Made by a program: the position numbers and the translations under genes | The notes under the pieces: generated by a model | The model's database searches: none | Seen by the model: only the letters and a program-made list of their open reading frames with translations | What the model was told of the DNA's origin: nothing | Assembly: GCA_040771865.1 (NCBI GenBank) | Contig: JAXGZF010000005.1 | Location: 186,001 to 250,000 of the forward strand | Direction: 5' to 3' | From: Desulfobacterales bacterium | Lineage (GTDB): Bacteria > Desulfobacterota > Desulfobacteria > Desulfobacterales > UBA2245 | Length of the DNA stretch: 64,000 bases | In this document: positions 29,124-53,312 of the stretch, one piece after another | Layout: the number at the start of each line of letters is the position of its first letter | Position numbering within the stretch: the stretch's first letter is position 1

Positions 29124-29230
29124 GGGGCCTGGTTTGCTGTTTTCAAGTCGCACCGGAAACCTTTGTTGAAAGAATTGAACGCCAACTCGGCGGAAAATTC
29201 AAGGGCCAAAATCATTGACCCGGAAAAGAT
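29124..29230 (+). repeat. RAYT-tail-like repeat, copy 1
   Basis: cgcaccggaaaccttt..tgaaagaattgaacgcc core. Confidence 0.75.
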
Positions 29231-29259
29231 ATGTTCGATTTTTTGAAATCGGGCGGAAA

Positions 29260-29403
29260 AAGGTCTTGAAAAACCACGCCTGAGGCCGCCGTGCAGCCTT
29301 GCGCGGCTCCTGCCGGTTCTTACATATGCTTGAATGCGTCGAGTTTCTCGTATCGCAGCGCGCCTTGCCCGACAACCTGATTCTTGTTTTTCAATATCCG
29401 GCT
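29260..29403 (-). mobile_element. Degenerate copy of the 143-bp MITE
   Basis: ttgaaaaac..gcctgaggccgcc...acatatgcttgaat...gcgcgccttgcc...ttcttgtttttcaata. Confidence 0.75.
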
Positions 29404-29453
29404 GTGCTAAAAATCTTTTGGGTTCAAGAATCGACATCGCATGAGGAGTTGAT

Positions 29454-30008
29454 ATGAGACAGGGCCTGGTACTAGTCGACATTCAGAACGATTACTTTCC
29501 CGGCGGAAAGATGGCGCTTGCCGGCATGGAGCAGGCGGCCGGAAATGCCCGAAGGCTGTTGCAGGAATTTCGAAACCGGCAGTTCCCTGTGTTTCATATT
29601 CGACACATTTCGCAGCGTCCGGGTGCGACATTCTTTTTGCCGGGCACTCAGGGCGCAGAGATTCATGAAACGGTAACCCCGAAACCGGTCGAGACCGTTA
29701 TTGAAAAGCGCTTTCCGAACAGTTTCAGGAATACTTCCCTGCTGGAGCATCTGAAGAATGCACGGGTGGAAGAAGTCGTCGTCTGCGGCGCCATGAGTCA
29801 CATGTGCATTGACGCGACGGTGCGCGCCGCATTCGATTTCGGCTTCAGCTGCATGGTCATCGAGGATGCCTGCGCCACGCGCGATCTTCGGTATAGGGGC
29901 AAAACCGTTGAAGCGGATCAGGTTCATTCGGCGTTCATGGCCGCCTTGTCGGCCCCTTGTGCAAAGGTGATTACCGCAGATGAGTTTTGCATTGCCGGCG
30001 AGCGATAA
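29454..30008 (+). CDS. Isochorismatase/cysteine hydrolase family protein
   Basis: LVDIQNDYFPGG, EKRFPNSF, GAMSHMCIDAT. Confidence 0.92.
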   Translation: MRQGLVLVDIQNDYFPGGKMALAGMEQAAGNARRLLQEFRNRQFPVFHIRHISQRPGATFFLPGTQGAEIHETVTPKPVETVIEKRFPNSFRNTSLLEHLKNARVEEVVVCGAMSHMCIDATVRAAFDFGFSCMVIEDACATRDLRYRGKTVEADQVHSAFMAALSAPCAKVITADEFCIAGER

Positions 30009-30031
30009 CCGTTTTCAGGAGCCGAGGGATC

Positions 30032-30682
30032 ATGAATGCCGTAATCGAATGTGAGGAGCGGGAATACGCGCCCTTTTTCGCGTGGCGCCGCCGCCGGAAA
30101 GACGGCTGGAAATTGCGGTTCCATCTTAAAGGTCCATCCTGGCTCGGACCGTTGGGGTATCTGTCCCCCTTTATCGGAATCTGGTGTTTCGCACGTCCTC
30201 CCAGACGCCTGTGCGATATTCCGAGAGAAGAATACCTTCAGTGCAAAATCGTGACCACGTGCGGAAGCCTCGGATCCTGCGGAATGGGCGGTCCGGGTTT
30301 TTTCGGTCTGCAGTGCCGCAAGAAACGCAATACCTTCTGGATCATCTTCACGCTTCGGGGGGCCGAGGGCTGGTTGACGCTCGATGCCAGGCTGATCGCT
30401 TCGAGCCTTTCGGAAGCCGAGAAGAAGACCTACGCCAAGCAGGGGAACATTGCCATGGAGACCGTGCATGGCGGAACCCTTGCGTCCGTAAAGTACCTGC
30501 CGTCGAGCATCGAGATCAAAATCCAAAAAGATAACGCGGAGCACGTTCTTGAACTGCGCCGGGATGGAAAGACGGTTCCGCCGTGGCGGGGAAGCGGCGA
30601 AAAGAAGAAATTCCGCGACACCGAACTGCTCGAGGACGCGCTCGTGGTCTCACGGCGGGCCGACCTGTGGACGGAAAACTGA
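30032..30682 (+). CDS. Hypothetical protein
   Basis: 216-aa ORF with SD-like GAGG; no family recognised. Confidence 0.55.
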   Translation: MNAVIECEEREYAPFFAWRRRRKDGWKLRFHLKGPSWLGPLGYLSPFIGIWCFARPPRRLCDIPREEYLQCKIVTTCGSLGSCGMGGPGFFGLQCRKKRNTFWIIFTLRGAEGWLTLDARLIASSLSEAEKKTYAKQGNIAMETVHGGTLASVKYLPSSIEIKIQKDNAEHVLELRRDGKTVPPWRGSGEKKKFRDTELLEDALVVSRRADLWTEN

Positions 30683-30845
30683 AGAGAGAAGACATGAACA
30701 GCCGGCAGATGCTTCAGGAATGACTGAGTCTCGAGCGGCCTCTTACCTTGCTCGACGCTTATGAAGTGCTTGGTGCCTGACCCATCCAGATGGCCGGATT
30801 GAAATTCCGGATCAACCGGAAACCCTGTTTTTAAAAGAGTGCGAC

Positions 30846-32063
30846 ATGACGAATGAATCCTTAGAGAATGAATCCCACCACGCTCCCCTGTCGTCCAGCG
30901 CATCCGCTTCGTGCGTTCAGATTCAGCCGTCCGTTGAAACGCCCTCTGCCTGCGGCTGTTCATCCGACAACCAGGTCTGCTGCGGCCCTTCTGCGGGACC
31001 GCCCTCTTCGGCCCATGAAAAGCCCGGATACGTCATTCAGGGCTTTGTGGAACGGTTTGCCGAAACCGCCGCCGGAACTGCGCCCATGGTAAAAACCCGA
31101 TGGGAACCCGCGGACGTTCTCGGCGCCATTCGTGCGCGCATTGGGTTCAGGCGCAACGAGTATCGAATAACGCCCGGACTTTACGGGGTAGGCGCCCCTG
31201 GCGCCGATTCGCCCGTCTTCGTTTCCGCGAATTACAAACTCAGTTTCGACCATCTCCGCCGGGCGCTTTCAGGCCGGCCTGCATGGATCCTGGTGCTGGA
31301 CACGCGCGGCATCAACGTCTGGTGCGCCGCCGGCAAAGGCACATTCGGTACGGATGAACTGGTGGAACGCATCCGGCGAACCGGTCTGGCGCAGGTTGTC
31401 CGGCATCGACGGCTGATTCTTCCCCAGCTCGGCGCTGCCGGCGTGGCCGCCCACGAGGTCCGAAAACGATCCGGATTCGAGGTCGTCTGGGGTCCCATCC
31501 GCGCAGCAGACATTCCGCAGTTTTTGAATAACGGCATGCATGCCGCGCTTGCCATGCGCGTGGTTACGTTTTTCTTTCGAGAACGGCTCGTTCTGGTTCC
31601 CGTCGAAATCAGCCTCTTGCTGCGCAAAGGGATTCTGTTCCTTCTTGCCGCGTTTGTCCTTTCCGGCATTGGACCGCACATTTTTTCGTTCGCACAGGCA
31701 TGGGAACGGGGCCTGGCGATGAATGCGGCCATTCTCTGCGGCGTGTTCGCCGGCACCGTGATCGTTCCGCTTCTGCTTCCCTGGATTCCGGGTTCCGCTT
31801 TCGCCGCCAAGGGTGCAATCGCCGCAGCGCCGGCGATACTCTTTCTGCTCGCGGGCATGGGGTTTCAGACCGGAATAATCGACAGCGCCGGTATGGTGCT
31901 GGTTCTGACGGCGATCAGTTCGTATTTGGCCATGAACTTCACAGGTGCGACTCCGTACACCTCTCCATCGGGAGTGGAAAAGGAAATACGCATGACCTTG
32001 CCGTTCCAGGTTGCGGCGGCGGTTCTGGGTTTAATCTTGTGGATTGCGTCCCCGTTCATCTGA
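30846..32063 (+). CDS. hgcA: Mercury methylation corrinoid protein
   Basis: Cap-helix motif NVWCAAGK in a CdhD-like domain (SANYKLSFD, DTRGINVWCAAGKGTFG); C-terminal TM region with YLAMNFTGATPYTSPSGV.KE; followed by hgcB. Confidence 0.95.
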   Translation: MTNESLENESHHAPLSSSASASCVQIQPSVETPSACGCSSDNQVCCGPSAGPPSSAHEKPGYVIQGFVERFAETAAGTAPMVKTRWEPADVLGAIRARIGFRRNEYRITPGLYGVGAPGADSPVFVSANYKLSFDHLRRALSGRPAWILVLDTRGINVWCAAGKGTFGTDELVERIRRTGLAQVVRHRRLILPQLGAAGVAAHEVRKRSGFEVVWGPIRAADIPQFLNNGMHAALAMRVVTFFFRERLVLVPVEISLLLRKGILFLLAAFVLSGIGPHIFSFAQAWERGLAMNAAILCGVFAGTVIVPLLLPWIPGSAFAAKGAIAAAPAILFLLAGMGFQTGIIDSAGMVLVLTAISSYLAMNFTGATPYTSPSGVEKEIRMTLPFQVAAAVLGLILWIASPFI

Positions 32064-32080
32064 AATGGAGAGAAGGCATC

Positions 32081-32374
32081 ATGAAGAAATTGCGATACCT
32101 GAAAAACGTTTCTACCCTGGTTCTGAATACGGATGCATGCATCGGGTGCGGCATGTGCGTCGATGTTTGTCCTCACGCCGTGTTCGATGTGTCCGGGCAA
32201 AAAGCCCGCATTACGGATCGGGACGGGTGCATGGAATGCGGGGCCTGCGCCTTGAATTGCCCGGTTGACGCCATTCGGGTTACGCCCGGAGTCGGCTGCG
32301 CCGCGCATATCATTCAGACTCGAATCAGGTCCGGAAACCTCGGTGTCTGCGGGCCGGGCGGCGCCTGTTGCTGA
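32081..32374 (+). CDS. hgcB: Mercury methylation ferredoxin
   Basis: CIGCGMCVDVCP and CMECGACALNCP, GVGCA, terminal CC; 17 bp after hgcA. Confidence 0.94.
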   Translation: MKKLRYLKNVSTLVLNTDACIGCGMCVDVCPHAVFDVSGQKARITDRDGCMECGACALNCPVDAIRVTPGVGCAAHIIQTRIRSGNLGVCGPGGACC

Positions 32375-32437
32375 AACGTTTCTTCAATGCCGCCGAAAGC
32401 AAGTCCCGATTCTTTCTATGCATCCGCTATTGGCGCT

Positions 32438-33430
32438 TTAGAAAAACAGACGGGAAGCAACCAATCCGTTTTCCATCAAATAATTCAGAATGGGGTCGCG
32501 TCCTTCCAGAACCACTCGTCTGGTTGGCGTTTCCTGCACCACCATCAAGGGCATGTTGCGAAAGCCGCTGTTGCGCATAAAGACTCCGCCTTTGTGCGCA
32601 GCCTCGGCGGTCTTGGGCAGGATATCCACGTCCGGCGCAGGTGCGTTCTTCAATACCAGAATCGCACTGAAGGGGTTGATAGCCGCAAGCGGATGGTCCA
32701 GAAGCGCGGACAGCATACGCTGGTCGTCCGGCTTTGTGTCCAGCGCAATCAGATGCCAGTCCCCGCCCTGTGGGGGATGAGCCGCCAGGCTGGCCAGCAC
32801 CCCGGAACATTGGGGACAGTGAAGGCTGAAGAAATAGAAAATTTGCACGCCATTCGGCTGTGCCGGCCGAAAGGTCGTCAGAACGGCCTGCCGAAGGTCA
32901 GGGGTTTTCTCCGGAAAGGCGAAAAACGCCTGAGATGCGAATCCCGCACTCCATACGGCTATGCCCATTGCCACGACCGCCACCGATCTGCGCATCCAGC
33001 CGAAAGCTGCAAGAATGAGAAGCAGCGATGCGCCGACGGTATAGCACAGCACGCAGGCTTCCTGAATGCCGAAGCGCTGAAACCCGAGAATCCCGCCGTC
33101 AAAGGCCAGACCGGTGGTCAGAATTACTGAGACAAGCGTCCACAGCCAGGGCTTATCCAGGCGCTTGCCCAGATACAGCAAGCCGGTCAGTATCCAGAAA
33201 AAAATCACGCCCAACCCAATGAACATGATTTCGCCATATTTGACGAATGTGCCGACTACAGCGCACCCGGCCGTAGGACACATGCCTCCATGACCAGCCT
33301 TTTGCAACCCGTATTCAAGGCTCAGCAACAGAGCTGCAATGATGGCCGGCGCCAGGGGAACATACGACCGAATACGGGAACCTGCATCTTTTGCTCTGTC
33401 GTGGGCGCTCATCTTTCGATCGTGCGTCAT
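32438..33430 (-). CDS. Membrane protein, VKOR-like domain plus thioredoxin-like CxxC domain
   Basis: CPTAGCAVV loop cysteines, TM CVLC, C-terminal FFSLHCPQC. Confidence 0.6.
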   Translation of the reverse strand: MTHDRKMSAHDRAKDAGSRIRSYVPLAPAIIAALLLSLEYGLQKAGHGGMCPTAGCAVVGTFVKYGEIMFIGLGVIFFWILTGLLYLGKRLDKPWLWTLVSVILTTGLAFDGGILGFQRFGIQEACVLCYTVGASLLLILAAFGWMRRSVAVVAMGIAVWSAGFASQAFFAFPEKTPDLRQAVLTTFRPAQPNGVQIFYFFSLHCPQCSGVLASLAAHPPQGGDWHLIALDTKPDDQRMLSALLDHPLAAINPFSAILVLKNAPAPDVDILPKTAEAAHKGGVFMRNSGFRNMPLMVVQETPTRRVVLEGRDPILNYLMENGLVASRLFF

Positions 33431-33594
33431 TGAGTGAATTCCTTCTTTCTTATTATTCCATTCCTCGTATTTCAGTTCCCCTCAACCAGCAACATCGTGA
33501 TTGCATGCAGAAAAAAACGGGTTGATTCACTCTGGAAATGATAAACAGACAAAAAACACAGTGGTTCAAAATCAATCGGAAAACCGGGTCAGAT

Positions 33595-34272
33595 TCACTC
33601 GAATGAACAGCAGTCATCCTTTGACGGAGGCGGGGCGCCGTCAAGGTTGCCGCACTGGCCCTTCATGCTGCCGTTGACGGTGTTGCCCCCACCGGTGGGA
33701 GTAAAAACGTTCTCCTTACACTCTAAGCTGCCGTTGACGGTGTTGCCGGTGATGGACGCTCCGCCGGCGTTTTTAAAAACCTGAAGATTGCCGCCGATCA
33801 TGTTGTTGGCGACTTTCAAGGGGCGGGTGTTTTCGAGGAAAGAAAGGTCGCCGCCAATTTTCACGCCGTCGATATCTGCTGCGCCCGACTGCTTGACCTG
33901 AATATCACCGCCCGCGAATGAGCCGGGGAAAACGTTTATGCGGGATGCTTTTTCAGCCCGGATATTACCGTTTACGTGGATGTTGAAGGCGTCCAGAGCG
34001 GCATTCGTTTCCAACTTGATGTTGCCGTCCACACGGATGTTGAAAGCGTACAGCGTGGCGTTTGTTTCCACCCGGATGTCGCCCTTCACTTGCGTGCCGT
34101 TTAAGGTGCACGTGGCATTTTGAGGGACGCGCAAGCTATCCTTGGAATCCGCGCCCATCGAAGCGGTACAGGCGCACTCATCCGCCAGGGCGGGGAGACG
34201 GACCGAAAACATCAATCCCAGTGACAGGGCTAATACCAACAGCATCGTCTTCCAGACAGGTTGCTTGTTCAT
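33595..34272 (-). CDS. Secreted beta-helix-like repeat protein
   Basis: Signal peptide ending PALA; repeated V.GNI.. units and repeated GNTVNGS. Confidence 0.65.
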   Translation of the reverse strand: MNKQPVWKTMLLVLALSLGLMFSVRLPALADECACTASMGADSKDSLRVPQNATCTLNGTQVKGDIRVETNATLYAFNIRVDGNIKLETNAALDAFNIHVNGNIRAEKASRINVFPGSFAGGDIQVKQSGAADIDGVKIGGDLSFLENTRPLKVANNMIGGNLQVFKNAGGASITGNTVNGSLECKENVFTPTGGGNTVNGSMKGQCGNLDGAPPPSKDDCCSFE

Positions 34273-34461
34273 CTGCTCTCACTATTTTTACACAGTAATT
34301 TCAGGTGGGTTTTTTGCATCAAGCGTTTGTAAATATTGTTCTTTTCCATATTCTCGGGATACGAGAAACATGATCGGCGTTGATGTTTTGGATTTAATTG
34401 CCGTTTCGAAGAAAGATGGGCCAGCTCTGGCCGGCCCGTTCATCTGTTTATTTCATTTGTG

Positions 34462-34968
34462 CTATTTGGAAACAGGATAACCCGCTTCTTCCCATGCAAC
34501 GATTCCGCCAGGATATTTATAGACGTTCTTGAAGCCGTTATCGGCAAGAATAGTTGCCGCAATCGTGCTTCTTCTGCACGCTACAAATCCGCAGTAGACA
34601 ACGATTGTCTTCTCTTTGTCGGATCCAGCAACTTTGAGCAGGTTGTCCTTGTCGGCCGCCGCAAGTTCCGCCTCGGTCTTGGGCATGGCGCCGCTTAATG
34701 CGCCCGGAAGAGTGCCAAACTGCTTGTCTTCATCAGCGGGGAGTGAACTGATGACGGTAAAAGTCTTTCCCTCGTCATACCATTTCTTCAAATCATCGGT
34801 TGCGATGAGATTGAAGCCGCTTCCTTTTGCATCAGCCACGAGTTTCACGGCCGCTTTTTCAATCGGTATTTCCTTGCCTTCGGGCGAGGTGCCGTGACCC
34901 GCTTGCGCCCAGGAAACGAAAACAAACGACATGATTGCAACAACGGCGAACATTTGAAATTTCTTCAT
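34462..34968 (-). CDS. Periplasmic rhodanese-like domain protein
   Basis: Signal peptide, IVVYCGFVACRRS, YPGGIVAWEEAGYP. Confidence 0.88.
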   Translation of the reverse strand: MKKFQMFAVVAIMSFVFVSWAQAGHGTSPEGKEIPIEKAAVKLVADAKGSGFNLIATDDLKKWYDEGKTFTVISSLPADEDKQFGTLPGALSGAMPKTEAELAAADKDNLLKVAGSDKEKTIVVYCGFVACRRSTIAATILADNGFKNVYKYPGGIVAWEEAGYPVSK

Positions 34969-35020
34969 TGCATCCTCCTGTGAGTTAAATTTAAAAGTCT
35001 TTCAAAAAGTCAAAATCGTT

Positions 35021-35107
35021 ATGGTATAATAAAAAGTTCAAGTTCAGGGCGTCGCAAACCCCGAGGGATGGAGCGCAATACAGAAATCGGACTTTTTACG
35101 AAGCCAT
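35021..35107. mobile_element. Degenerate short element of a second MITE-like family
   Basis: Imperfect terminal IR atggtataataaaaagttc / ggactttttacgaagccat; a solo matching end gacggcttcgtaaaaagtcc at 19622-19641. Confidence 0.5.
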
Positions 35108-35507
35108 AAAAATTGTGGGATCATAAATAGTAAGGAAGTAAATTGTCAAATAGTTAATGTCGATGTTATAAATAATACATATCGAGTTTAACAATAGCTG
35201 GTTCGCCATTTGCCGTTTCCAGCCGAAGGTTCATCCATGGAGGCATCCGTGCTGTTGCGATTCAGTCGATCGGGTGCGGATGGGCTTAAGGTTGAGGCGG
35301 CATGCATCGGGAAAAAGTCGTGCCATTGTGCAATTCCGTGGGTCACCTCTCTGAATTCAAAAGCAAGCACGACGTTCCCGGAATTTTGTGACCGTTAATG
35401 GTTAATCAATTTGACAGGATTTCCGGCAATGGATATTCTGGCAGAAAAGATCGGGTCATTCAGAAAACGCGAAAGAACGGATCACCCTTTGAGCGGGGGA
35501 AAATGCC

Positions 35508-36482
35508 ATGAAAAAAATGCAGCTGATAACCATAATTGTCATCGCGATGGCCCTGTTCGTTCCGGGCTGCTATGTCGGCGTCGAACCGGATTATGACGTC
35601 TACAGAGACGGAGGCGCCTACGAACCGCCGCCGATCGCATTTAGTGGGTTTCCTTATTTAGTAGTGATACCAGATACATACGATGTCTACGTGGCTGCCG
35701 ATATCAGTGTGGACCTGTTTTTCTGGAATGGCTGGTGGTGGCGCCCCTGGGGAGGCCGCTGGTATCGATCAAAGTATTATGACCGGGCCTGGGTCCATTA
35801 TAATGATATTCCAGGTTTTTATTTTGATTTGGACCCGGATTGGCGGGGATATTACCGGGGCCGTAACTGGCATGGATACCGGTGGGAATATCAGCGGATT
35901 CCTTACCACAAAGTTCAACAGAACTGGAAGAACTGGCAGAATGACCGGCACTGGGAAAGACAAAGAACCTGGGACGTCAGGAACTATAAGCCTCGACCGC
36001 CACAGCAGAGAGAGGCAATAAGACAATTAAGACAGCAGCAATATCAGCGGAGTCAGCCCCAGGTTCAACAGCCGCAGAGAGAGCAACGGGTTGAGCAACC
36101 GCGAAGGCAGCCTCAGATTCAAAAGCCTCAGGCTCAGCAACCCCAGAGGCAGCCTCAGGTAAAGCAGCCGCAGAAGCAGCAACCGCAGCGACAGCCCCAG
36201 TTAAAGCAACCGAAGAGAGAGCCACGGGTTGAACAACAATGGAGTCAGCCCCGGATGCAGGATCAGCAGCGACAGCCTCAGGTTCAGCAACCCCAGAGAG
36301 GGTCTCAGGTAAAGCAGCCGCAGAAAGAGCCGCAGCGGCAGCCACGGGTCGAACAGCCGCAGCGACAGCCTCAGGTTCAGCAGCAACGGAGAGATCCTCA
36401 GGTAAAGCAGCCTCAGAGGCAGCCCCGGGTTGAACAACCCCGGGAGCAGCCTGAGGTTCAAAAAGAGGTCGATCGGCAATAG
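35508..36482 (+). CDS. Putative lipoprotein with W/Y-rich domain and Q/P/R-rich repeat tail
   Basis: Signal with lipobox-like VPGC; FFWNGWWWRPWGGRWY; many QPQV.QPQR repeats. Confidence 0.7.
   Translation: MKKMQLITIIVIAMALFVPGCYVGVEPDYDVYRDGGAYEPPPIAFSGFPYLVVIPDTYDVYVAADISVDLFFWNGWWWRPWGGRWYRSKYYDRAWVHYNDIPGFYFDLDPDWRGYYRGRNWHGYRWEYQRIPYHKVQQNWKNWQNDRHWERQRTWDVRNYKPRPPQQREAIRQLRQQQYQRSQPQVQQPQREQRVEQPRRQPQIQKPQAQQPQRQPQVKQPQKQQPQRQPQLKQPKREPRVEQQWSQPRMQDQQRQPQVQQPQRGSQVKQPQKEPQRQPRVEQPQRQPQVQQQRRDPQVKQPQRQPRVEQPREQPEVQKEVDRQ
36054..36460 (+). repeat. Coding tandem repeats (QPQVxQPQR units)
   Basis: Recurring cagcctcaggt.../gaacaacc units within the CDS. Confidence 0.8.
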
Positions 36483-36772
36483 TGGACAAACAGGCGGACC
36501 GGGTTTCCCGAACAGGAAACCGGAATGGATCTTCGGGAAACCGCCCTGATTTTATATGGCATTCCAAACGTAAAAACCGGGACCCAAAAAGAAACACCCG
36601 TAACAGGGTGTGGAAAACAAGAATCAGTCAAAACAAACGGTCAATCAGGGCAAAAAGTTTGTAAAGACATGGGCCTCATGTTCCCGGAATGATTCATGCC
36701 AATATATCAATGCCCGTCCCCGAGATGCCGTCCCCGAGATGCAATATGGATTGTATATAGGAGGATCAACCC

Positions 36773-36982
36773 ATGAGAGAATTCAGCGTAATAATTGAAA
36801 AAGATGAAGATGGCTATTTTGTTGCCTCGGTGCCGGCCCTTCGAGGGTGCCATACTCAAGCAAAATCGCTTGACACGCTGATGAAGAGAATAAAAGAGGC
36901 TATTGAGCTTTGTCTTGAGGTGGAAGAGCCTGTTTCCAATGAGTTCATCGGCGTGCAAAAAGTGGCGATTGTCAACTCATGA
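36773..36982 (+). CDS. hicB: HicB family antitoxin
   Basis: VIIEKDEDGYFVASVPALRGCHTQA...IKEAIELCLE. Confidence 0.9.
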   Translation: MREFSVIIEKDEDGYFVASVPALRGCHTQAKSLDTLMKRIKEAIELCLEVEEPVSNEFIGVQKVAIVNS

Positions 36983-37203
36983 CCCCTTTTCCTTCCATAA
37001 CGGGCAGTCAGCTGATTCGCGCCTTGCGCCAATTTGGATTCGAGACGATGCGCGTGAAAGGCAGTCATCATTTCCTTCAACATCCAGACGGCCGCTGCAC
37101 GGTTGTTCCTGTACACAGAGGAGAGGTTGTGGGTCGTGGGCTTCTTGCTCAAATATTACGCGACTGCGAGATTACAAGGGAAGAACTGAAAAAGACGCTT
37201 TAA
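36979..37203 (+). CDS. hicA: HicA family toxin (mRNA interferase)
   Basis: RVKGSHHFLQHPDGRCTVVPVH...GLLAQIL. Confidence 0.92.
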   Translation: MTPFPSITGSQLIRALRQFGFETMRVKGSHHFLQHPDGRCTVVPVHRGEVVGRGLLAQILRDCEITREELKKTL

Positions 37204-37229
37204 CAGGGTGTTGAAAAACAAGAATCAGT

Positions 37230-37310
37230 CGGAAACCTTTGATTGAAAGAATTGAACGCCAGCCGGGCAGGGAATTCAAAGGCCAGAAACCGGGTCCCGA
37301 AAAAATAAGT
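37230..37310 (+). repeat. RAYT-tail-like repeat
   Basis: Translates [21 protein letters not shown]; directly fused to a MITE half-end at 37201-37230. Confidence 0.8.
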
Positions 37311-37351
37311 CAGGCGCTCCAGGCATTTCGGAATTTCAAAGAGGTTCATTT

Positions 37352-44326: not shown

Positions 44327-44361
44327 ATTGACCTCTTTCGCACGTGTTCGTTTCTTCACGA

Positions 44362-44420: not shown

Positions 44421-44475
44421 TGCTTTAAGCCAATAATTGTACATTGTATAACGCTTTCTGGAGAAGTCATATACA

Positions 44476-46440: not shown

Positions 46441-46557
46441 TCTCTATTACCTCCATGGCTAAATGCTTGCGAATGGGGTTGACATTCGATCATCCACAAA
46501 TGAGACATTTGAATCCTTCCGCCTGAAATTGTCACCTGTGGCATTCGCCCCCTGGCT

Positions 46558-46649
46558 GCAGAACGCCAGCATTGCCGGCGTTTTTCAGAGTGTAGAGAGA
46601 GAAGCGAACGGAGCGGCGAAAAACGTTAGTGTTTATGCATTTGTTAGCC
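46558..46649 (-). other. attC-like site (92 bp)
   Basis: Minus strand ggctaac-aaatgcataaac...cgtttttc...gaaaaacg...caatgctggc-gttctgc, beginning 8 bp after the nuclease stop. Confidence 0.78.
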
Positions 46650-46656
46650 AATGAAT

Positions 46657-47568
46657 TCACATATCTCTGTATTTTAAGAATATGTCACCAGTATCGGAAG
46701 CATGTCTTCTCTTTCGAAACAGCATATCTTTTAAATCAATTCTATTTTCTAGTACGGCCATAAGATCAGCACCATCCATTAGCAACATTGTTTTCATTGA
46801 TGATGATTTACTTACATTGTAATCGGCAGTGAAACCATTTATTGAAATGACTAAGCCAAGTGTTAATTTAAGCCTCCCTTCTATTTTTCCACCAAACTTG
46901 TAGAGTTCTCCAAGTTCAATTGGTTTTTCTTGCCATTTAGCTTCCAACAAGAAATCATTGCCATCAAAAGTAAAGGCACCATCTATCTGTTCACCAACGA
47001 TCCTAAATGATTCTTTTGGTTCAAGGTCAAGCAAAGTAAAAAGGCTGTTAAGAAATTTCTCAAATGCAAATCCACGTTTTTGAGCATTTGGCTCAAGTAT
47101 TAGCCCGCCGAAATCATCCTTTAGAACGCTAATCATATTTGCGAAGTTTTCTTTTTCTTTTTGCATATTTGAGAAGACACTGCGCCTTGCTTCAACCTTT
47201 TCTTTTTCTTCTTTGAGCTCAAAATACCCTTCAGCGTGCTTTCGTAGAGCTTCTACAGCATCTTTGGCCCGTCTAATCATTTTTTCAGAATCTTCCCACT
47301 GTTTTAAATGTGTAAAATCATTAAAGTGCATCGTTACATCAAATAATTGGAACAAATCTTTTTCATATAAGTCTGGTCTTTCAACCATTCTATCCACAAG
47401 AATTCCTGCACTTTCTGCCTTCCTGTTGTTGACCCAATCAATAGTAGATATGAATAATTTATTTTCAACTGTATGATATACAAAGCTTCTTAAGTCTTGC
47501 TTTTTCCAATAAATATGAGTGAGCGCTTCTTTTAAAGCTTGTATTGCATTAGGTGAAAACTTCTTCAT
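46657..47568 (-). CDS. Mrr-like PD-(D/E)xK restriction endonuclease domain protein (gene cassette)
   Basis: RGFAFEKFL...EQIDGAF...LLEAKW; AT-rich; preceded by GTTAGCC (47595-47601) and followed by the complementary GGCTAAC. Confidence 0.82.
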   Translation of the reverse strand: MKKFSPNAIQALKEALTHIYWKKQDLRSFVYHTVENKLFISTIDWVNNRKAESAGILVDRMVERPDLYEKDLFQLFDVTMHFNDFTHLKQWEDSEKMIRRAKDAVEALRKHAEGYFELKEEKEKVEARRSVFSNMQKEKENFANMISVLKDDFGGLILEPNAQKRGFAFEKFLNSLFTLLDLEPKESFRIVGEQIDGAFTFDGNDFLLEAKWQEKPIELGELYKFGGKIEGRLKLTLGLVISINGFTADYNVSKSSSMKTMLLMDGADLMAVLENRIDLKDMLFRKRRHASDTGDIFLKYRDM

Positions 47569-47631
47569 GATTTTTCCTCTTTCGATCTGGGGCTGGCTAA
47601 CGGCCGGGGTGCGAGTAGCGCGCCTTGATCA

Positions 47632-48058
47632 ACCATTAATTATCAGGTCAAATAATATGATATTCAGCGTTTTTTCGGGCATATTGTGCCCTTAAATAAT
47701 AACAAACTGAATTTATCAAAATCGTTTGGCAGTTTTTGTTTGTTTGCCGGTTTAACATTTTGATCCTCGAGTCTGACTTGCTCGCGAATAGGTAATACAT
47801 TGCTTTGAAAGCTTCTTTGATGCAGAAGCAAGGACCGTTTTCGTCAGAAATCATATTGGAGCTTTTGATGACTTCATCGTACCTGGATTTCAACCAGTAC
47901 ATTTCGCTAACACAAAACATGATTTTAGAGAAGTAAAATTTGCACGCATTCATTGAAGTTGAGCAGCAATCCCGACTTCATGAAATCGCATGGCGAATTT
48001 CGGGAGCAACTTGCCGGAAACCTTTCATCGAAAGAATTGAACGTCCGCCGGGCAGGGG
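47632..48058 (+). repeat. Long direct repeat copy A (includes RAYT-tail-like repeat at 47954-48058)
   Basis: Highly similar to 50022-50368. Confidence 0.85.
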
Positions 48059-48326
48059 ATAGCTCGGGATGTCCTTAAATAACTAACTATATTATTTTGT
48101 TAAGCTTTATTGTGCATAATTGGTCATCAAAACCCATGCAAAACGGCTTGCCCGGCTTATCCGTTTTATCCCGGAAAATGTCCTGGCGTTCAATTCCCTG
48201 GATTATCACGTGGTGCAGAATTCCGGGCGCATCTAATCTGGCTGATCTTGGCATAGGTTTTCAAATATAACAGACAGGGAAATCGTTCAAATTTTTCGTC
48301 CCCAAGATGCCCCGTTAATCCCCTCA

Positions 48327-49073
48327 TCACCGCGTCATCAGCGCGAACACGCCCCAGCCCAGGTATTCACGCGTGTAAGTGGCGTGGCGCACGGGTTCCG
48401 AGGTCAGTTGGGCTCGAACCTCTTTGGCTAACTCGTCGTCGGGATTGGCTTCAAGCCATCGGCGCATGGTGAGCCACTTGGCCGCCTCGTATCTGTCCCA
48501 GCCGTCTTGGTCAGCCAGAACCATTTCAACGACGTCGTAGCCGAGGCGGCCGAAAGACGCGAGAAGTTCCGGAAGCAGGAGAAAGTCGGAGATTGAGTGG
48601 GCAAGACACCCCCTGGCAACATCTTCCGTCGGCGGTAACTGCCGCCAGTAGGGCTCGCCGATGAGGATGATCCCTCCGGTGCGCAGGCTCTGCGCCAGAA
48701 GCTCGATAGTGCCGATGACTCCCCCACCGATCCACGTGGCACCGAGACAGGCTGCCACATCGGCCTTCTCGCCAGAGATGTAGCCGGCAGCATCGCCATG
48801 GATAAACGTGACTTGATCGGCGACGCCGAGTTCTTCAGCGCGGAGTTTCGCTTGCTCGGTGAACAACCGGCTCATGTCGATGCCGGTGCCGATGACGCCG
48901 TGATCGCGTGCCCAGGTGCACAGCATCTCCCCCGAACCGCTGCCGAGGTCGAGCACTCGGGTTCCCGTTTCCAGACGCAGCGCCGCGCCGAGAGTGGCGA
49001 GCTTTTCGGGTGTGAACGGGTTGTGGATGCGGTGAGCACTTTCGGTGATGTTGAAGATCCGTGGAATGTCCAT
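48327..49073 (-). CDS. Class I SAM-dependent methyltransferase (YjhP-like)
   Basis: MDIPRIFNITESAHRIHNP, VLDLGSGSGE, GEPYW, REYLGWGVF. Confidence 0.9.
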   Translation of the reverse strand: MDIPRIFNITESAHRIHNPFTPEKLATLGAALRLETGTRVLDLGSGSGEMLCTWARDHGVIGTGIDMSRLFTEQAKLRAEELGVADQVTFIHGDAAGYISGEKADVAACLGATWIGGGVIGTIELLAQSLRTGGIILIGEPYWRQLPPTEDVARGCLAHSISDFLLLPELLASFGRLGYDVVEMVLADQDGWDRYEAAKWLTMRRWLEANPDDELAKEVRAQLTSEPVRHATYTREYLGWGVFALMTR

Positions 49074-49114
49074 TGCGGAAAATCTCCTTACGGGTGTGAA
49101 TAGATTCGGTCACT

Positions 49115-49246
49115 GCCTGACGCTAGGCATGAGTGCGCAGGGAAAAGCCAAGAAAAACCTTGGAAACTGGTAGTTTTGGGAAGTCTTCAGCTAAAGGTAT
49201 AAAACGTGCCGGCTTTTCCCAGTCCATCTCAATGCCCTTGTTCGCT
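49115..49246 (-). other. attC-like site (132 bp)
   Basis: Minus strand agcgaac-aagggcattgag...gggaaaagcc...ggcttttccc...ctcatgcctagc-gtcaggc, beginning 9 bp after the PIN stop. Confidence 0.78.
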
Positions 49247-49254
49247 TTTGATTA

Positions 49255-49659
49255 TTATTTCAAATAGCTATCAACGAATTCCCGTGGCTTCAAAACTGTA
49301 ATGCCTTGATATCCTGACACCTTTAATAAATGTTTGTCTCCGCTGATAATTATTTCGCTATTGCTGGCAATTGCGCATTCCATGAACTTATTGTCATCAG
49401 GGTCATCACATACAGATATATCAAAACCTTGGGTGTCTATAATTTGCCCATGAATTGTCATAAGTTCAATAATCTGCAAGATGTCGATTGCTGGAAATCT
49501 AGCTGCTAAAGACTCAGCAACACGTTGGTATTCATTAAGGATTTCTTGCGAAAGTACAATTTGTAGTCTTGAGTTTTGCCATGCCTTGAGAATTTGAAAA
49601 GGAGGGCCACTAAAAAATATCCCAGATATGAAAACATTCGTATCAAGGATGATTTTCAT
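49255..49659 (-). CDS. PIN-domain toxin
   Basis: IILDTNVFISG...DPDDNKFMECA...ISGDKHLL. Confidence 0.92.
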   Translation of the reverse strand: MKIILDTNVFISGIFFSGPPFQILKAWQNSRLQIVLSQEILNEYQRVAESLAARFPAIDILQIIELMTIHGQIIDTQGFDISVCDDPDDNKFMECAIASNSEIIISGDKHLLKVSGYQGITVLKPREFVDSYLK

Positions 49660-49922
49660 TTCTTCTTCCCTCGAGCTTTAGATATCGCATCCTTAATATC
49701 AGACTTTTTTAATCCGGCTTGTTTCCCTTTTTTTCTGGCGTCAGCAATTAGAGCATCAAATTCATCAAGGGATGGAGTTGCTATGGTTTTAAGAATAACA
49801 ACATCCTTCTCACCGACAACGACAAATTGTGCCCCAGCCTTTAAATTGAGTTGTTTCCGTATGTTTTCTGGAATAACAACCTGTCCTTTAGAGGACATTT
49901 TTGTTGTTGATACATTTGCCAT
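49656..49922 (-). CDS. AbrB/MazE-family antitoxin
   Basis: TKMSSKGQVVIPENIRKQL; overlaps the toxin start. Confidence 0.9.
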   Translation of the reverse strand: MANVSTTKMSSKGQVVIPENIRKQLNLKAGAQFVVVGEKDVVILKTIATPSLDEFDALIADARKKGKQAGLKKSDIKDAISKARGKKK

Positions 49923-49947
49923 AATATGCCTCCCTATAATTTATTTA

Positions 49948-49961
49948 TCTTACTGGTAAGA
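49948..49961. promoter_or_regulatory. Candidate TA autoregulatory operator
   Basis: Palindrome tcttac-tg-gtaaga about 25 bp upstream of the antitoxin start. Confidence 0.45.
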
Positions 49962-50021
49962 CTATATGGCCTTGATCTTAAAAATACAAGCCTTTTAAAT
50001 CAATTACGATTATAGAAAGCG

Positions 50022-50486
50022 ACCATTGATTATCAGGTCGATTTGCCCTGATAATCTGTTTGTTTCCCCGGTTTAACATTTTGATCTTCGAGTCTGACTT
50101 GCCCGCGAATAGATAAAAAATTGCTTTGAAAGCTTCTTCGATGCAGAACCAACGACCGTTTTCGTCAGAAATCATATTGGAAATTTTGATGACTTCATCG
50201 TACCTGGATTCCAACCAGTCCATTTCGCTAACACAAAACATGATTTTAGAGAAGTAAAATTTGTACGCATTCACGGAGGTTAAGCAGCAATCCCGACTTC
50301 ATGAAATCGCATGGCGAATTCCGGGAACCTTTCATCGAAAGAATTGAATGATAATAGGGCAGGGAATTCAAACGACAAAAACCGGGACCCGAAAAGAAGA
50401 ATAAGCAAGATGTTCCCGGAATTATCGGCCAACTGCCGTTCTATAGCATAAAATCATAGACATCCCCACATTATCCCCAATTGAAC
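50022..50486 (+). repeat. Long direct repeat copy B plus RAYT-tail-like repeat
   Basis: Matches 47632-48058, then 43030-43178. Confidence 0.85.
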
Positions 50487-50492
50487 GGATCA

Positions 50493-51026
50493 TCATGATC
50501 GGAACCTGTGACTTTCCTGGCGTTGAATAATGTCCATAAACTGTGAGAGGATGCTGGCGGTGATGTGTTTGGGGTTCGAATGCCGTATCGATCGAGCGAA
50601 CGTTTCGGCTTCTTCGGCCGGGATTCCTCCAACCCTGTGCAATTCGGCGACAAGCTCGAGACCCCACAGCAACGGAACGCCTTCCTGTTTGCAGAATTTC
50701 CGCAGGTTCTTGTCGTTGGTTACGCATGTGAAACCCTGCCGTTTGGCTGTAAGAAGGCATAGCCAGTCCTCGAACGATAACGGCCCGGATCGGCTGCCGG
50801 CGTCATATGCGTCCTCAATTTCTGGCTCGACGATAATCAGCCCGAGTTCGACCAGTTCGTTTTCGTCATCGATTTCGTGCACCTCGTCGACTACCGGACT
50901 GATCACGTGAAGCGGCCCCACATGTTTCACCACAAGTTCCAGCATGGCCCTTTCTGCCTTGATGTAATCAATCAACACGCATGTGTCCATGATCATCAAC
51001 CTGTGGTGGACAGGGCGGCGTTTCAC
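50493..51026 (-). CDS. PIN-like domain protein
   Basis: IMDTCVLID...LSFED...VTNDKNLR; GTG start overlaps the upstream TGA. Confidence 0.8.
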   Translation of the reverse strand: MKRRPVHHRLMIMDTCVLIDYIKAERAMLELVVKHVGPLHVISPVVDEVHEIDDENELVELGLIIVEPEIEDAYDAGSRSGPLSFEDWLCLLTAKRQGFTCVTNDKNLRKFCKQEGVPLLWGLELVAELHRVGGIPAEEAETFARSIRHSNPKHITASILSQFMDIIQRQESHRFRS

Positions 51027-52135
51027 AGAATGACCTCCCAATTCTGCAGAAGATCATGCATTTCCTCAATGCCGATTCGTAGCATTTCTGCGCCGCGGCC
51101 AAGCGATATCTTGTCTTTTTCCACCGCCTCCCTGGTCAGTCGACTGAAACGGTCTTCGAAGAAATCGAATTGCCGCATTCCGAACGGTTCGGTGGGATCG
51201 AATCCCATCGGTTCCTGCTTGAAGGGGAGTTTCCTGTTGAAGCGCTGCTGGTATGAGCTGTTGAATTTTGCCCATATGGAACTGTCCACGACCTCGTCTT
51301 CCAAAAGGCGGTAAAGCACGGTCTTGTAACTGACGCGGAAAATGCGTTTGACCTTGAAGACTCTATCCACAAAGTGCAATCCCGCCGCTTCATTCCATTC
51401 CTTGCGGAACCCGTCGTTTGGCATTAGAAAGTGCCCGGCGAAACAATCGGCCTCGCGCTCTTCCTCTCTGCTTTCTTCGATCCGGCTGACATCGTAGGCG
51501 TCGAGATGCAACATGAGATGGCCAAGTTCGTGGGCGGCGCTGAAAATCTGCCTTTCCACGGAAATCCGCTCCCACGCGTTCACGACCACCGCCGGGCCGC
51601 CGCTCTCCTCTCCCACCGACATGCCGAAAAATCCGTCGGATGCCATGGGAACCGGAAAGACTTTCACGCCCGCACTTTCGAGAAGGCCGCAAATATCATG
51701 AATGGGTTCGGTCGTTTTCAGCCTCAGTTTTTTCCGACAGAGTCCGGCCGCCTCAGATGGACGGTTTCTGGAGCATTGCGCCCTGTCCGACTTGAGGCTG
51801 AAGGTCGTCTGTTTGTTCAGAATCTTTTCAAGATAGCTGAAATCGTCGAGCCATCTTGCCACTTCGGCCAGAACATTCTCGCGGTTCTGCATCCGCTTTG
51901 CCGAACGAAACCGGACGGCGCGCAATTCCCGGACCGGCAGGAAAAGCTCCTGAAGCTTCACTTCCAGGGCCTTGGCAATTGCCTGCACGGTTCTCATTCG
52001 CGGTTCGTTCTTTGCGAGTTCGAGATTCTTAATCGCCGGCAAGGAGAGACCCGCGGTATCCGCCAGCGCACTTTGGCTCAAGCGCTTCGCAGTTCTCAGA
52101 CGTCTTACATTTTGGGCGAGTATCTGCAGGTTCAT
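51023..52135 (-). CDS. XRE HTH + ImmA/IrrE metallopeptidase fusion
   Basis: N-terminal HTH (LSQSALAD...IKNLE), FRS motif, AHELGH, EREADCFAGHFLMP. Confidence 0.92.
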   Translation of the reverse strand: MNLQILAQNVRRLRTAKRLSQSALADTAGLSLPAIKNLELAKNEPRMRTVQAIAKALEVKLQELFLPVRELRAVRFRSAKRMQNRENVLAEVARWLDDFSYLEKILNKQTTFSLKSDRAQCSRNRPSEAAGLCRKKLRLKTTEPIHDICGLLESAGVKVFPVPMASDGFFGMSVGEESGGPAVVVNAWERISVERQIFSAAHELGHLMLHLDAYDVSRIEESREEEREADCFAGHFLMPNDGFRKEWNEAAGLHFVDRVFKVKRIFRVSYKTVLYRLLEDEVVDSSIWAKFNSSYQQRFNRKLPFKQEPMGFDPTEPFGMRQFDFFEDRFSRLTREAVEKDKISLGRGAEMLRIGIEEMHDLLQNWEVIL

Positions 52136-52311
52136 GATAATCTCCTTTCTACGCTTTTATTTAAAAATACCATACTTAATTAAATTGTCAAATAGTATAT
52201 TTTAACAGGGAGGGCTTCACCATGGGCGGCGGGAAAGGGGGTCAGGTCTGCTCTTGACCTTTTTGCTGTAAATGGATTCCGGGAACACCCGGCATAGTTC
52301 CTGAGTGCGCA

Positions 52312-52471
52312 TTCACGGAGGTTAAGCAGCAATCCCGACTTCATGAAATCGCAAAGCGAATTCCGGGGACACATCGCCGGGAACCTTTCATCGATCGAAC
52401 GCCAAGCGGGCGGAAGATTCGAGGTCCAAAAAAACATTGTAATCGAACCGCAACGCGGTATCATGCGGCAT
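52312..52471 (+). repeat. RAYT-tail-like repeat variant
   Basis: Shares cacggaggttaagcagcaatcccgacttcatgaaatcgca with the 50272 copy and the taatcgaaccg...atcatgc tail with 53281. Confidence 0.75.
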
Positions 52472-52508
52472 GGACATCGGACGGGCTCAAGTGAGAGCCA
52501 GAGGAATT

Positions 52509-53180
52509 ATGGAATACGATCTTATCTTGTTTGATCTGGACGGCACGATCAGCGACTCGCTCACGGGCATCGCCAGGTCGATCAACTACGCATTGATCGC
52601 ATTTGGATATCCGCAAGTTTCTGAGTCTTCTCTGGCAAGGTTCATCGGACCGCCGATTGACGATACGTTCGCACTTCTTGCCGGGACCGGGTCCAGGGAA
52701 ATGATTGAGCAACTCGTGGCCAAATTCAGAGAAAGGTTTTCTGATATCGGGTACGCTGAGAATCATGTGTACCCAGGGGTTACAGAAGTCTTGGAGGATC
52801 TGCATGCGAACCATGTTCCCATGGCCGTTTGCACATCGAAACGCCTTGACTACGCTGAGAAAGTATTGCGCATGTTTGAATTGGATCGCCTTTTCCTGTT
52901 TGTGAATGGCGGCGACATGGGTATTTACAAGGGGCAGCAGATCGCCCGGATGCTGTCTGAGGGCAAGGCATCAAAAAACACGCTGATGATCGGCGATAGA
53001 GGTATGGACCTGAAGGCGGCCCACACGAACGGAATTTCCTCGGCAGGCGTGCTTTGGGGATACGGGTCGCAGGCTGAACTGGAGAGTGAAAACCCGGCGC
53101 ATTTGTTTTCGAGCCCTCAGGAATGGGGGATACTGAAAAGGCTCACCCGGCGCTTTGAATTCCGGGAAAGCCTGACCTAA
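52509..53180 (+). CDS. HAD-superfamily hydrolase (phosphoglycolate phosphatase-like)
   Basis: FDLDGTISDS, FIGPP, TSK, MIGDR..D, VLWGYG. Confidence 0.9.
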   Translation: MEYDLILFDLDGTISDSLTGIARSINYALIAFGYPQVSESSLARFIGPPIDDTFALLAGTGSREMIEQLVAKFRERFSDIGYAENHVYPGVTEVLEDLHANHVPMAVCTSKRLDYAEKVLRMFELDRLFLFVNGGDMGIYKGQQIARMLSEGKASKNTLMIGDRGMDLKAAHTNGISSAGVLWGYGSQAELESENPAHLFSSPQEWGILKRLTRRFEFRESLT

Positions 53181-53194
53181 TCTTCGGCAGGTCC

Positions 53195-53312
53195 GGCCGG
53201 GTGCGTTATTTTCATGTTGCACCGGAGCCCTTTCATTGAAAGAATTGAACGGCAACCGGGCGGCGAATTCGAAAACCTGGTAATCGAACCGTGAAGCGGC
53301 ATCATGCCGCAT
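53195..53312 (+). repeat. RAYT-tail-like repeat variant
   Basis: gcaccggagccctttcattgaaagaattgaacgg core. Confidence 0.75.

Follow-up and report, generated by a model that had tools for sequence, protein, structure and literature searches.

Within a 64,000-nucleotide (nt) stretch of a Desulfobacterales genome (GenBank assembly GCA_040771865.1, contig JAXGZF010000005.1, positions 186,001 to 250,000; hereafter the window), defence, toxin-antitoxin and other accessory gene modules are separated by co-oriented repeats. We find that these repeats are decayed, non-autonomous mini-TIRtrons of ~225 nt, miniature elements derived from a transposon of the TIRYT type of Y1 (HUH) transposase. The minis are restricted to one region and one strand, no cognate enzyme was found, and the module differences between close relatives have their breakpoints at or in the copies. 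We consider it probable that the minis spread locally by strand-specific Y1 transposition and that they now serve as passive patches of homology for the loss or exchange of modules.

The source genome (G000) comprises 2.98 Mb in 13 contigs and is 98.3% complete, with the window at C5:186001-250000. It was compared with a single genome of the same genus (G001), in which the region is split over three contigs ending in a 152-nt miniature inverted-repeat transposable element (MITE), and with a metagenome relative (M1), 95-98% identical and known from metagenome contigs only (L162, L165, L166). Statements of absence in G001 rest on DNA search.

Co-oriented repeats in one accessory region

The first-pass annotation of this DNA had reported about eight same-strand copies of a repeat at module boundaries, and all eight places were recovered by repeat search and by an nhmmer profile of 225 positions built from the longest, full-length copies. 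The repeat search of the window returned a same-strand family (D1) at 29152, 37229, 43025, 48014, 50321 and 53222, to which two other families add a partial copy at 36558 (D8) and a copy at 52308 (D5). Together these make eight copies, seven clear and one partial, all on the + strand and spanning 29087-53274 (the island); in the repeat search they are 60-88% identical to the reference copy. They are listed here with a possible ninth copy and with the weak remnants found outside the island; TIR denotes a terminal inverted repeat, and the ORF tail is the remaining 3' part of an open reading frame (ORF), both described below.

29087-29250, + strand: copy c29152, subfamily 1; profile 3-170, E = 3e-42; left TIR, vestigial promoter/start, ORF tail and degenerate right TIR
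35306-35390, + strand: possible ninth copy, very degenerate; EcoRI-like core and right-TIR-like motif at 35372 (motif scan, by eye)
36561-36740, + strand: partial copy c36558; middle of the ORF tail at 36561-36594, inserted MITE remnant, right-TIR motif at 36678, GTCCCC repeats
37197-37326, + strand: copy c37229; tail and right TIR at 37230-37326 (profile 70-170), left end formed by a 32-nt MITE fragment at 37197-37228 (D9)
42953-43174, + strand: copy c43025, the most complete; profile 2-224, E = 1e-62; left TIR ~42953, right TIR 43108, second right-TIR-like motif ~43160-43174
47945-48057, + strand: copy c48014, subfamily 2; D5 leader 47945-48013, tail 48014-48057 (profile 69-112), cut off at profile 112
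50266-50477, + strand: copy c50321, subfamily 2; D5 leader, tail with stops, right TIR 50410 and second right-TIR-like motif; 50320-50477 is profile 68-224, E = 2e-46
52277-52433, + strand: composite copy c52375; profile 2-130, E = 2e-6; left TIR 52275, D5 leader 52308-52358, second left TIR 52359, ORF tail
53159-53274, + strand: copy c53222, subfamily 1; profile 1-128; left TIR and ORF tail
C5:4008, C7:282281, C3:197304 and C3:97115, + strand: weak mini remnants outside the island (nhmmer, E ≤ 0.01)

A blastn search of the whole genome with one 201-nt copy gave six matches, every one within the island. At E ≤ 0.01 the profile found 11 matches in the 2.98 Mb, seven in the island and the four weak remnants elsewhere, and all 11 lie on the + strand of their own contigs. 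The genomic distribution, a point on which the annotation's proposal depended, is therefore clustered and co-oriented rather than random. GC skew is positive along the whole of contig C5, and the sense strand of the repeat is the G-rich strand in 10 of the 11 matches, the exception being C7:282281. Mini-type TIR motifs with at most two mismatches number 7 and 14 genome-wide.

Several copies have individual features. The copy c29152 lies between a DUF3175 gene on one side and a copy of the 152-nt MITE with an isochorismatase gene on the other, and its counterpart at the same position in G001 (L027 760-912) is 82.8% identical. The partial copy c36558 matches profile 113-147 at E = 0.94 by nhmmer and E = 0.0015 by DNA search; hicB starts directly after it, and G001 has a whole 152-nt MITE at the same point. 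From ~53270 the right part of c53222 consists of a ~50-nt sequence (D13) that is also found before the HAD gene, and the whole copy with its right TIR is retained in G001 and M1. The candidate at ~35306-35390 is probably a further, very degenerate copy, as judged only by eye in comparison with G001; it was undetected by the profile at E ≤ 1 and coincides with the right breakpoint of a 4.6 kb segment that is missing from G001.

The repeats derive from a TIRYT-type transposon

The annotation had pointed to a likeness between the translated repeat core and the C-terminus of REP-associated (Y1) transposases (REP, repetitive extragenic palindromic). We searched 301 genomes of the class in six frames with the 52-amino-acid (aa) translation of copy 43025 and obtained matches in 16 genomes at E ≤ 0.01. 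Twelve matched loci were inspected, five of which hold intact ORFs of 220-226 aa (L034, L037, L038, L046, L051), one an internally deleted copy (L043) and six the tail only. The intact ORFs share the C-terminal tail of the repeat (...RPLG..F[IV].R[ILV]E.....R.L...KPG..[KR]K), with a match over the last ~27 residues. They are Y1_Tnp proteins (PF01797, 51.7-58.4 bits for a cut-off of 23), carry NH[IV]H and YIE[LN]NP motifs, and score 70.3, 78.5 and 81.4 bits against the NCBIfam model of the REP-associated tyrosine transposase (NF047646, REP_Tyr_transpos; cut-off 80). An IS200/IS605 element is ruled out by scores of 16-24 bits against the IS200 model NF033573, below its cut-off of 55, and by ends that are inverted repeats of each other.

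Every intact gene lies between two 18-nt inverted repeats, the first ~50 nt upstream of the start and the second immediately behind the stop. Both hold GGGGACAC, and a TTGACA-like box lies just inside the left TIR. These inverted repeats fit GGGGWSAS, the TIR motif of the TIRtron, which was named together with its transposase TIRYT by Di Nocera et al. 2013 (PMC3733652); Quentin et al. 2018 (PMC6006769) place TIRYT in TnpA-Y1 subclass 2.1. The Y1 likeness is therefore correct, and indeed intact Y1_Tnp relatives end in the same tail as the repeat.

Anatomy of the mini element

In the best copies (42953-43174 here and L027 11111-11335 in G001) the left TIR is followed by ~50 nt that parallel the promoter and start region, the site of an internal deletion, the last ~27 codons of the gene and the right TIR, with a second right-TIR-like motif ~55 nt after it. 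The left TIR of c52375 and of G001 copies and the right TIRs at 43108 and 50410 match the GGGGWSAS type, while some copies deviate in a TIR by one or two bases or have lost one arm. At least three copies have defined ends, and the flanks beyond the ends are unrelated among copies at different positions. In a single-stranded DNA (ssDNA) fold of 42945-43180 the left TIR pairs with the right TIR; the ssDNA folds are not better than those of shuffled sequence (z -1.8 and -0.2). The unit is thus a complete miniature element with both TIRs, not the solitary transposase 3' end that the annotation had described, a reading that the left TIRs present in the window copies rule out.

Nothing of the gene is left except its last ~27 codons, and several copies contain stops or frameshifts. 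As the catalytic domain is absent, with neither the HUH motif nor the tyrosine kept, the copies are non-autonomous derivatives and not TIRtrons proper. They fall into two subfamilies. Members of subfamily 1 (29087, 42953 and 53159) have one internal-deletion junction in common throughout G000, G001 and M1. In subfamily 2 (48014, 50320 and part of 52277) a left-TIR-like motif directly abuts the tail, which is another common junction, and upstream of the copies are a leader of ~70 nt (D5) and a repeat of ~260 nt (D3). Because the junctions are common to the copies, multiplication occurred as minis, after the deletion; independent decay of full-length insertions is ruled out by the one junction per subfamily in three genomes. 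Internal-deletion derivatives with both ends are also present in two other genomes, G211 and G257.

No cognate transposase

As the annotation had stated, there is no intact transposase in the window: none was found by a protein-family scan of the window ORFs or by a PF01797 scan of the genome, which finds seven places in all. A search with an intact relative did not find the cognate TIRYT in G000 or G001, returning only other Y1 proteins, mostly of long types and at 26-40% identity, together with short remnants. Repeat peptides compared by blastp with the genome's own Y1 proteins gave weak local matches only (best E 0.004, 7-sequence set). Five resident Y1 genes were scanned for motifs, and only a long-type gene on contig C9 has matching TIRs on both sides; its motif is a different one, GGGGTCAG. 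The resident Y1 genes belong to clades other than that of the mini, and given the 98.3% completeness a missed cognate copy in G000 is possible but unlikely.

Most copies occupy the same positions in G001. The differences among G000, G001 and M1 are all truncations, hybrids or module swaps, with no clean insertion or excision of a whole mini among them. With no cognate enzyme and with positions common to the congener, the copies are old, and they are best seen as immobile relics shared with the sister species.

Module differences between relatives break at the repeats

The gene modules between and beside the copies are as follows.

36773-37203, + strand: hicB-hicA toxin-antitoxin module (Pfam HicB_lk_antitox, HicA_toxin)
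37352-42931, + strand: hsdR-hsdM-hsdS type I restriction-modification (Pfam, PADLOC)
43478-47953, - strand: 332-aa protein (weak CBS), 654-aa OLD/AriA/GajA-like ATPase, 303-aa protein and 101-aa ORF (part of D3)
48087-48297, - strand: 5' fragment of a long-type Y1 (TIRYT-like) gene (tblastn, 50% over 32 aa)
48327-50274, - strand: methyltransferase, PIN, AbrB/MazE-type antitoxin and 98-aa ORF (repeat D3)
50493-52135, - strand: PIN-domain gene and IrrE/RmrA-like helix-turn-helix (HTH) metallopeptidase gene
52470-53180, + strand: HAD hydrolase gene (Pfam), present in G000, G001 and M1
53291-58941, + strand: TRAP transporter (DctP, DctM) and P-type ATPase

Most of the module assignments of the annotation stand, namely hicBA, hsdRMS, the OLD-type ATPase, the methyltransferase, PIN with AbrB/MazE, PIN with the IrrE/RmrA-like gene, HAD and the TRAP genes DctP/DctM. 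The CBS assignment is weak (E 0.0012), and those of HEPN and Mrr had no family match; the 303-aa protein likewise had no match in the protein-family libraries.

Among 61 genomes compared by DNA search, G000 included, clear copies occur only in G000 and G001, with eight matches each, and three others have a single weak match. A scan of metagenome contigs with a 21-nt pattern gave nine loci, of which the three with clear copies (L162, L165, L166) are all of M1 type. In addition, Logan contigs from four metagenome runs of four studies were compared with window positions 36000-55999.

The segments absent from G001 are 29236-30019, 30684-35325, hicBA, 43432-47609, 48300-50184, 53272-59027 and the left 203 bp of copy 52277. 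The first of these (MITE and isochorismatase) begins at the right end of copy 29087. The segment 53272-59027 (TRAP and P-type ATPase) begins inside copy 53159 and was found in neither G001 nor M1, which have a TPR/PDZ gene and a 900-aa ORF in its place. At the position of hicBA, G001 has a flavin reductase, and a 257-aa ORF is another G001-specific cargo. G001 also has an extra GNAT-type cassette with a copy on each side, and the outer halves of these two copies together correspond to the one copy, 37230, of G000; c37229 looks like a hybrid of the two. The methyltransferase and PIN/AbrB module (48300-50184) is present in M1 at 97.5% identity, and the left 203 bp of c52375 (52205-52410) is missing in M1 as well. 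The hsdRM genes are kept in G001 at ~91% identity with different hsdS target-recognition domains, an instance of the domain shuffling that is usual in type I specificity subunits.

The M1 contig L162, with the same arrangement in L165 and L166, carries in order the G000 methyltransferase/PIN-AbrB module (97.5%), a copy cut at profile 127 and the G001 257-aa module (92%). These are followed by D3 with a copy, IrrE with the PIN gene deleted, HAD, a whole copy and the G001-type TPR/PDZ region (95%). The PIN deletion has one breakpoint in the repeat, at profile position 187, and the sequence changes from G000-like to G001-like within D3 and the mini. As M1 combines modules of G000 and G001, the modules assort independently among the three genomes. 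In G001 the two copies of subfamily 2 share 96.6% identity with each other, as against 85-91% with copies in the other genomes, a pattern that hints at gene conversion. Two Logan contigs with short sides give weak signals, one a joint 50265>52308 through 46 letters common to D5 (run X1) and the other the G001-like form 52204>52410 (run X4).

In agreement with the annotation's idea that strain breakpoints would coincide with the repeats, the differences among G000, G001 and M1 break at or inside them. Within the repeat the breakpoints are scattered over profile positions 112, 127-130, 155, 170 and 187, so that a single hot spot at the GAATTC core is not upheld. The end of c48014 (112) and the start of c36558 (113) were considered as two halves of a circle, which is ruled out by a G001 match that ends at 127 with a homologous flank; as judged from the alignments, the c48014 end is one old truncation followed by a small deletion. 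A Logan joint 53255>37203, taken as a possible signal of a circle or tandem duplication, is explained by a 152-nt MITE after the mini in another strain, and joints 36709>37202 and 42941>48071 were set aside since their sides are 25-29 letters long and touch multi-copy sequence.

The family in other genomes

With an alignment of the five intact proteins as query and one genome per species, a family-wide scan gave 604 stretches, 593 of them confirmed, in many phyla, and the best 80 loci were analysed. More than one place within ~10 kb is held by 15 of the 80 loci. Counting extra copies at ≥35% identity, and leaving aside two loci with only weaker extra matches, 16 of the 17 share the orientation of the main gene (12 of 13 loci). 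In three other genomes, full copies lying beside each other are 92-95% identical over a stretch of 716-750 nt that ends exactly at the TIRs, so the unit behaves like a discrete mobile element with a tendency to insert close by and in the same orientation. Genome G152 has two intact copies 6.3 kb apart and locus L099 three copies ~3 kb apart, with further cases at L097 and L133; in G211 an intact TIRYT gene is followed by an MNT/HEPN pair and then a mini. The cargo between copies is mixed, including the MNT/HEPN pair, insertion sequence (IS) elements, RHS and type VI secretion system (T6SS) genes, McrBC, pseudogenes and metabolic genes.

Five loci (L062 in G152, L112, L097, L110 and L095), from several genomes that are unrelated to one another, hold intact TIRYT genes beside RHS/teneurin-like toxin genes, a Tae4 amidase effector and Hcp. 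The Y1 elements of this clade may be linked to polymorphic-toxin or T6SS loci.

Other features of the region

A second small element, the 152-nt MITE with terminal inverted repeats, gave 108 blastn matches genome-wide, most of ~150 nt and on both strands, and is also frequent in G001. Its places in the window are as follows.

24472-24623 (- strand), 25857-26011 (+ strand), 29266-29399 (- strand), 60581-60738 (+ strand): 152-nt MITE copies
36595-36628, 37197-37228, 56134-56164: 152-nt MITE fragments

One copy of this MITE adjoins a 286-aa Y1 gene with an internal TAG (C11:22926-23786), and the intact G001 counterpart of that gene (C14:5680-6180) also has a copy beside it (C14:6194-6344). The MITE and the adjacent Y1 gene may form a RAYT/REPIN-like pair.

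The Y1 fragment at 48087-48297 comes from a long-type gene (337-347 aa), is 93% identical in DNA to the 5' region of a 337-aa-type Y1 gene on contig C10 of G001, and adjoins the truncation of c48014 in the opposite orientation. In four metagenome runs the summed contig depth over this fragment and the methyltransferase region (48006-49339) is very high, which suggests a sequence common to other, more abundant organisms or elements. Directly upstream of the subfamily-2 copies, in the AT-rich DNA of repeat D3, are paralogous minus-strand frames of ~100 aa (47648-47953 and 49978-50274). They had no match in the protein-family libraries; the opposite strand is also open over ~55 codons, and D3-related sequence occurs at other places in G001.

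Several further repeats lie in the window. The hsdS gene contains an internal 232-nt repeat (41289-41520 and 42150-42381; D4, 75% identical). A 324-aa Q/P-rich protein built on 42-nt tandem repeats (D2) is encoded at 35508-36482 (+ strand), is conserved and length-variable in G001, and has no Pfam match. Direct repeats of 39 nt (56169-56207 and 59025-59063; D14, 82% identical) flank the P-type ATPase gene (56299-58941), with a MITE fragment at 56134. Near MITE copies, a 64-nt 3' segment of the ATP synthase gamma-subunit gene (18383-18446) is repeated 6.7 kb downstream (25101-25164; D10, 94% identity). No tRNA genes were found in the window, and Rfam gave no match there.

Discussion

We propose that an internal deletion took out almost the whole gene of a TIRYT element and would have spared the left TIR, traces of the promoter and start region, the last ~27 codons and one or two right TIRs. 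As long as a cognate transposase was available, the resulting mini would have increased in number locally, within a single accessory region, and strand-specific single-strand Y1 transposition at the replication fork would have set the common orientation of the copies. Single-strand transposition of this kind, linked to the replication fork and setting orientation, is documented for IS608 and ISDra2 (PMC6006769). The transposase would have been lost afterwards, leaving the copies immobile. Together with D3 and D5 they would now act passively, as stretches of direct homology, 60-330 nt long, through which modules are deleted, converted or exchanged by recombination, and they would also be favoured landing sites for other small elements. 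That the minis once transposed, and that recombination is what changed the modules, we infer from these patterns. The annotation had suggested that a transposon end was used to insert defence cargo or that repeats served to shuffle it by recombination. Nothing shows the former, the copies being old and mostly at the same positions in the congener, and it is the latter, shuffling or loss between repeats, that we favour.

Several points weigh against this proposal. Minis are present in nearly every inter-operon spacer, so breakpoints near them are partly expected by geometry, and within the repeat the breakpoints fall at several positions. Some flanking copies are only ~70% identical (G001 3951 vs 5388), a poor RecA substrate, and for several of the changes, the 4.6 kb at 30684-35325 among them, a possible copy is near one end only. 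Moreover, G001 is fragmented at the 152-nt MITE, with the order of its pieces inferred, M1 is represented by metagenome contigs only, and the Logan joints, whose sides are no longer than 25-32 letters, could be artefacts of assembly.

The transposase could instead have played a direct part in moving the modules. A Y1 enzyme might cut at the left TIR of a first copy and at the right TIR of a second one further downstream, excise the intervening genes as an ssDNA circle and paste them elsewhere, which would make the island a fossil 'peel-and-paste' system. Every window module is bracketed by an upstream left TIR and a downstream right TIR in the same orientation, IS200/IS605-type Y1 enzymes act on the ends of one strand only (PMC6006769), and in several phyla co-oriented copies likewise enclose 0.2-6 kb of cargo. 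However, no composite unit was found in two different contexts, the duplicated units in other genomes end at single-gene TIRs and not around cargo, and the cargo between copies elsewhere is heterogeneous, with IS elements and pseudogenes in it. As the breakpoints between strains also lie inside the minis at varied positions rather than at TIR tips, and neither G000 nor G001 has a cognate transposase, we regard such capture as unlikely here. A different kind of gain would need no dedicated recombinase at all, if each module arrived with a mini of its own, on a circle or linear DNA, and integrated into a resident mini by Campbell-type or double-crossover recombination. The outer halves of the two G001 copies around the GNAT cassette, which match one G000 copy, would fit such homology-guided arrivals, as would three successive minus-strand modules that each end in the same unit of D3 and mini, the mosaic of G000-like and G001-like segments joined in that unit in M1, and the absence of the modules elsewhere in the congener's genome. 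The same patterns would nevertheless arise by deletion between direct repeats in an ancestor with all the modules, and with three genomes gain and loss of modules are not distinguishable. The flanking copies are short and diverged, and no donor of module and mini was found outside the genus, either in the 61 relatives searched by DNA or in the metagenome scan, which gave M1-type contigs only; we therefore think accretion of this kind improbable. Breakpoints at several repeat positions argue against one site-specific crossover of the integron type.

The repeats might also have been kept for regulation, as a portable promoter, terminator or small RNA, in which case their place between operons would reflect that role; the TIRtron has a promoter of its own immediately inside the left TIR. 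Intact elements have the TTGACA-like box inside the left TIR, copies lie upstream of the + strand isochorismatase, hsdR, HAD and dctP genes and, for subfamily 2, upstream of the minus-strand ~100-aa ORFs, and the copies are older than the split of the two species and still retained. Against this, the box is degenerate in c43025, the window gave no Rfam match and the folds did not surpass those of shuffles, and the copies are truncated at many points and have diverged from the reference copy as expected for neutral decay, so that a regulatory role is very improbable. We thus return to local multiplication of the mini, followed by passive recombination between its copies, as the reading that we prefer.

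Among known systems, the TIRtron is the closest to the repeats described here. The ORF tail aligns with the C-terminus of the intact relatives, the inverted repeats are of GGGGWSAS type and the minis keep both TIRs, but the catalytic domain is missing from the window copies. The intact relatives, of 220-226 aa, are short and have Y1_Tnp as their only Pfam domain, whereas subclass 2.1 is described with a C-terminal HTH-like extension (PMC6006769). The accounts of TIR-repeat families in PMC3733652 and PMC6006769, in the sections that bear on this comparison, make no mention of internal deletions that retain part of the ORF or of arrays around accessory modules. The minis also resemble REPINs (Bertels and Rainey 2011, PMC3116915), which are non-autonomous, intergenic and vertically inherited and have two inverted Y1 recognition sequences, and a relation to the REP-associated tyrosine transposase (RAYT) is seen in intact relatives near the NF047646 cut-off. 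A REPIN is a short REP doublet that occurs tens to hundreds of times genome-wide beside a single-copy RAYT (PMC3116915), whereas the mini is present as ~8 copies within one region of 24 kb, with ~150 nt of the former gene between its arms and no cognate gene. A REPIN population is ruled out by this absence and by the few copies, 11 profile matches in 2.98 Mb with seven of them in one 24-kb stretch. Like a MITE, the mini has kept its ends and lost its interior, with one junction common to all copies, and depends on transposase in trans. It differs from one in that its parent is a Y1 single-strand element rather than a DDE IS, and in its strong bias to one orientation; no target-site duplication was identified for the minis. 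The mini thus works like a MITE or REPIN and derives from a TIRtron.

The island also recalls the attC cassettes of integrons, with co-oriented imperfect repeats of 60-220 nt separating single accessory modules and strains that differ by whole modules. An integron is ruled out, since the repeats derive from a transposase gene, breakpoints at several positions do not fit a single crossover point, and a scan of 77 window ORFs returned neither IntI or Phage_integrase nor any other recombinase family; the modules, moreover, are on both strands. Orphan arrays downstream of rhs and cdiA consist of co-oriented 3' gene fragments, each with cargo, and probably build up by recombination. The island resembles them in its co-oriented fragments and cargo, and in some genomes the TIRYT genes of the clade adjoin RHS/T6SS genes. 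The window copies differ in carrying the 5' TIR, which makes them whole mini elements, and in a cargo unrelated to the fragment. In the literature searched, the terms TIRYT and TIRtron are used only by Di Nocera 2013 and Quentin 2018; a search on RAYT/Y1 elements with defence islands, cassettes or passenger genes returned nothing on such an arrangement.

TIRYT-type Y1 transposases are widespread, with at least 593 related loci in many phyla, and hardly studied. The present case adds that TIRYT elements yield miniature non-autonomous copies that keep part of the gene, that members of the family are often close neighbours with a common orientation, and that their relics mark the exact places where a defence and toxin-antitoxin island differs between close relatives. 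It is doubtful that co-oriented arrays of TIRtrons and mini-TIRtrons are a general, integrase-free system of cargo capture, in which the Y1 enzyme pairs a left end with a downstream right end and moves defence, toxin-antitoxin or toxin genes as an ssDNA circle. If this were true, it would explain why 16 of 17 extra copies are co-oriented, why cargo lies between copies in several phyla and why the relatives compared here differ module by module, and the window would be a fossil array still exchanging modules via its leftover homology. If the repeats do not guide exchange, they are ordinary transposon debris in a variable region. If they do, they would provide a simple, recombinase-free way of reshuffling defence islands, and a practical marker for the units of exchange.

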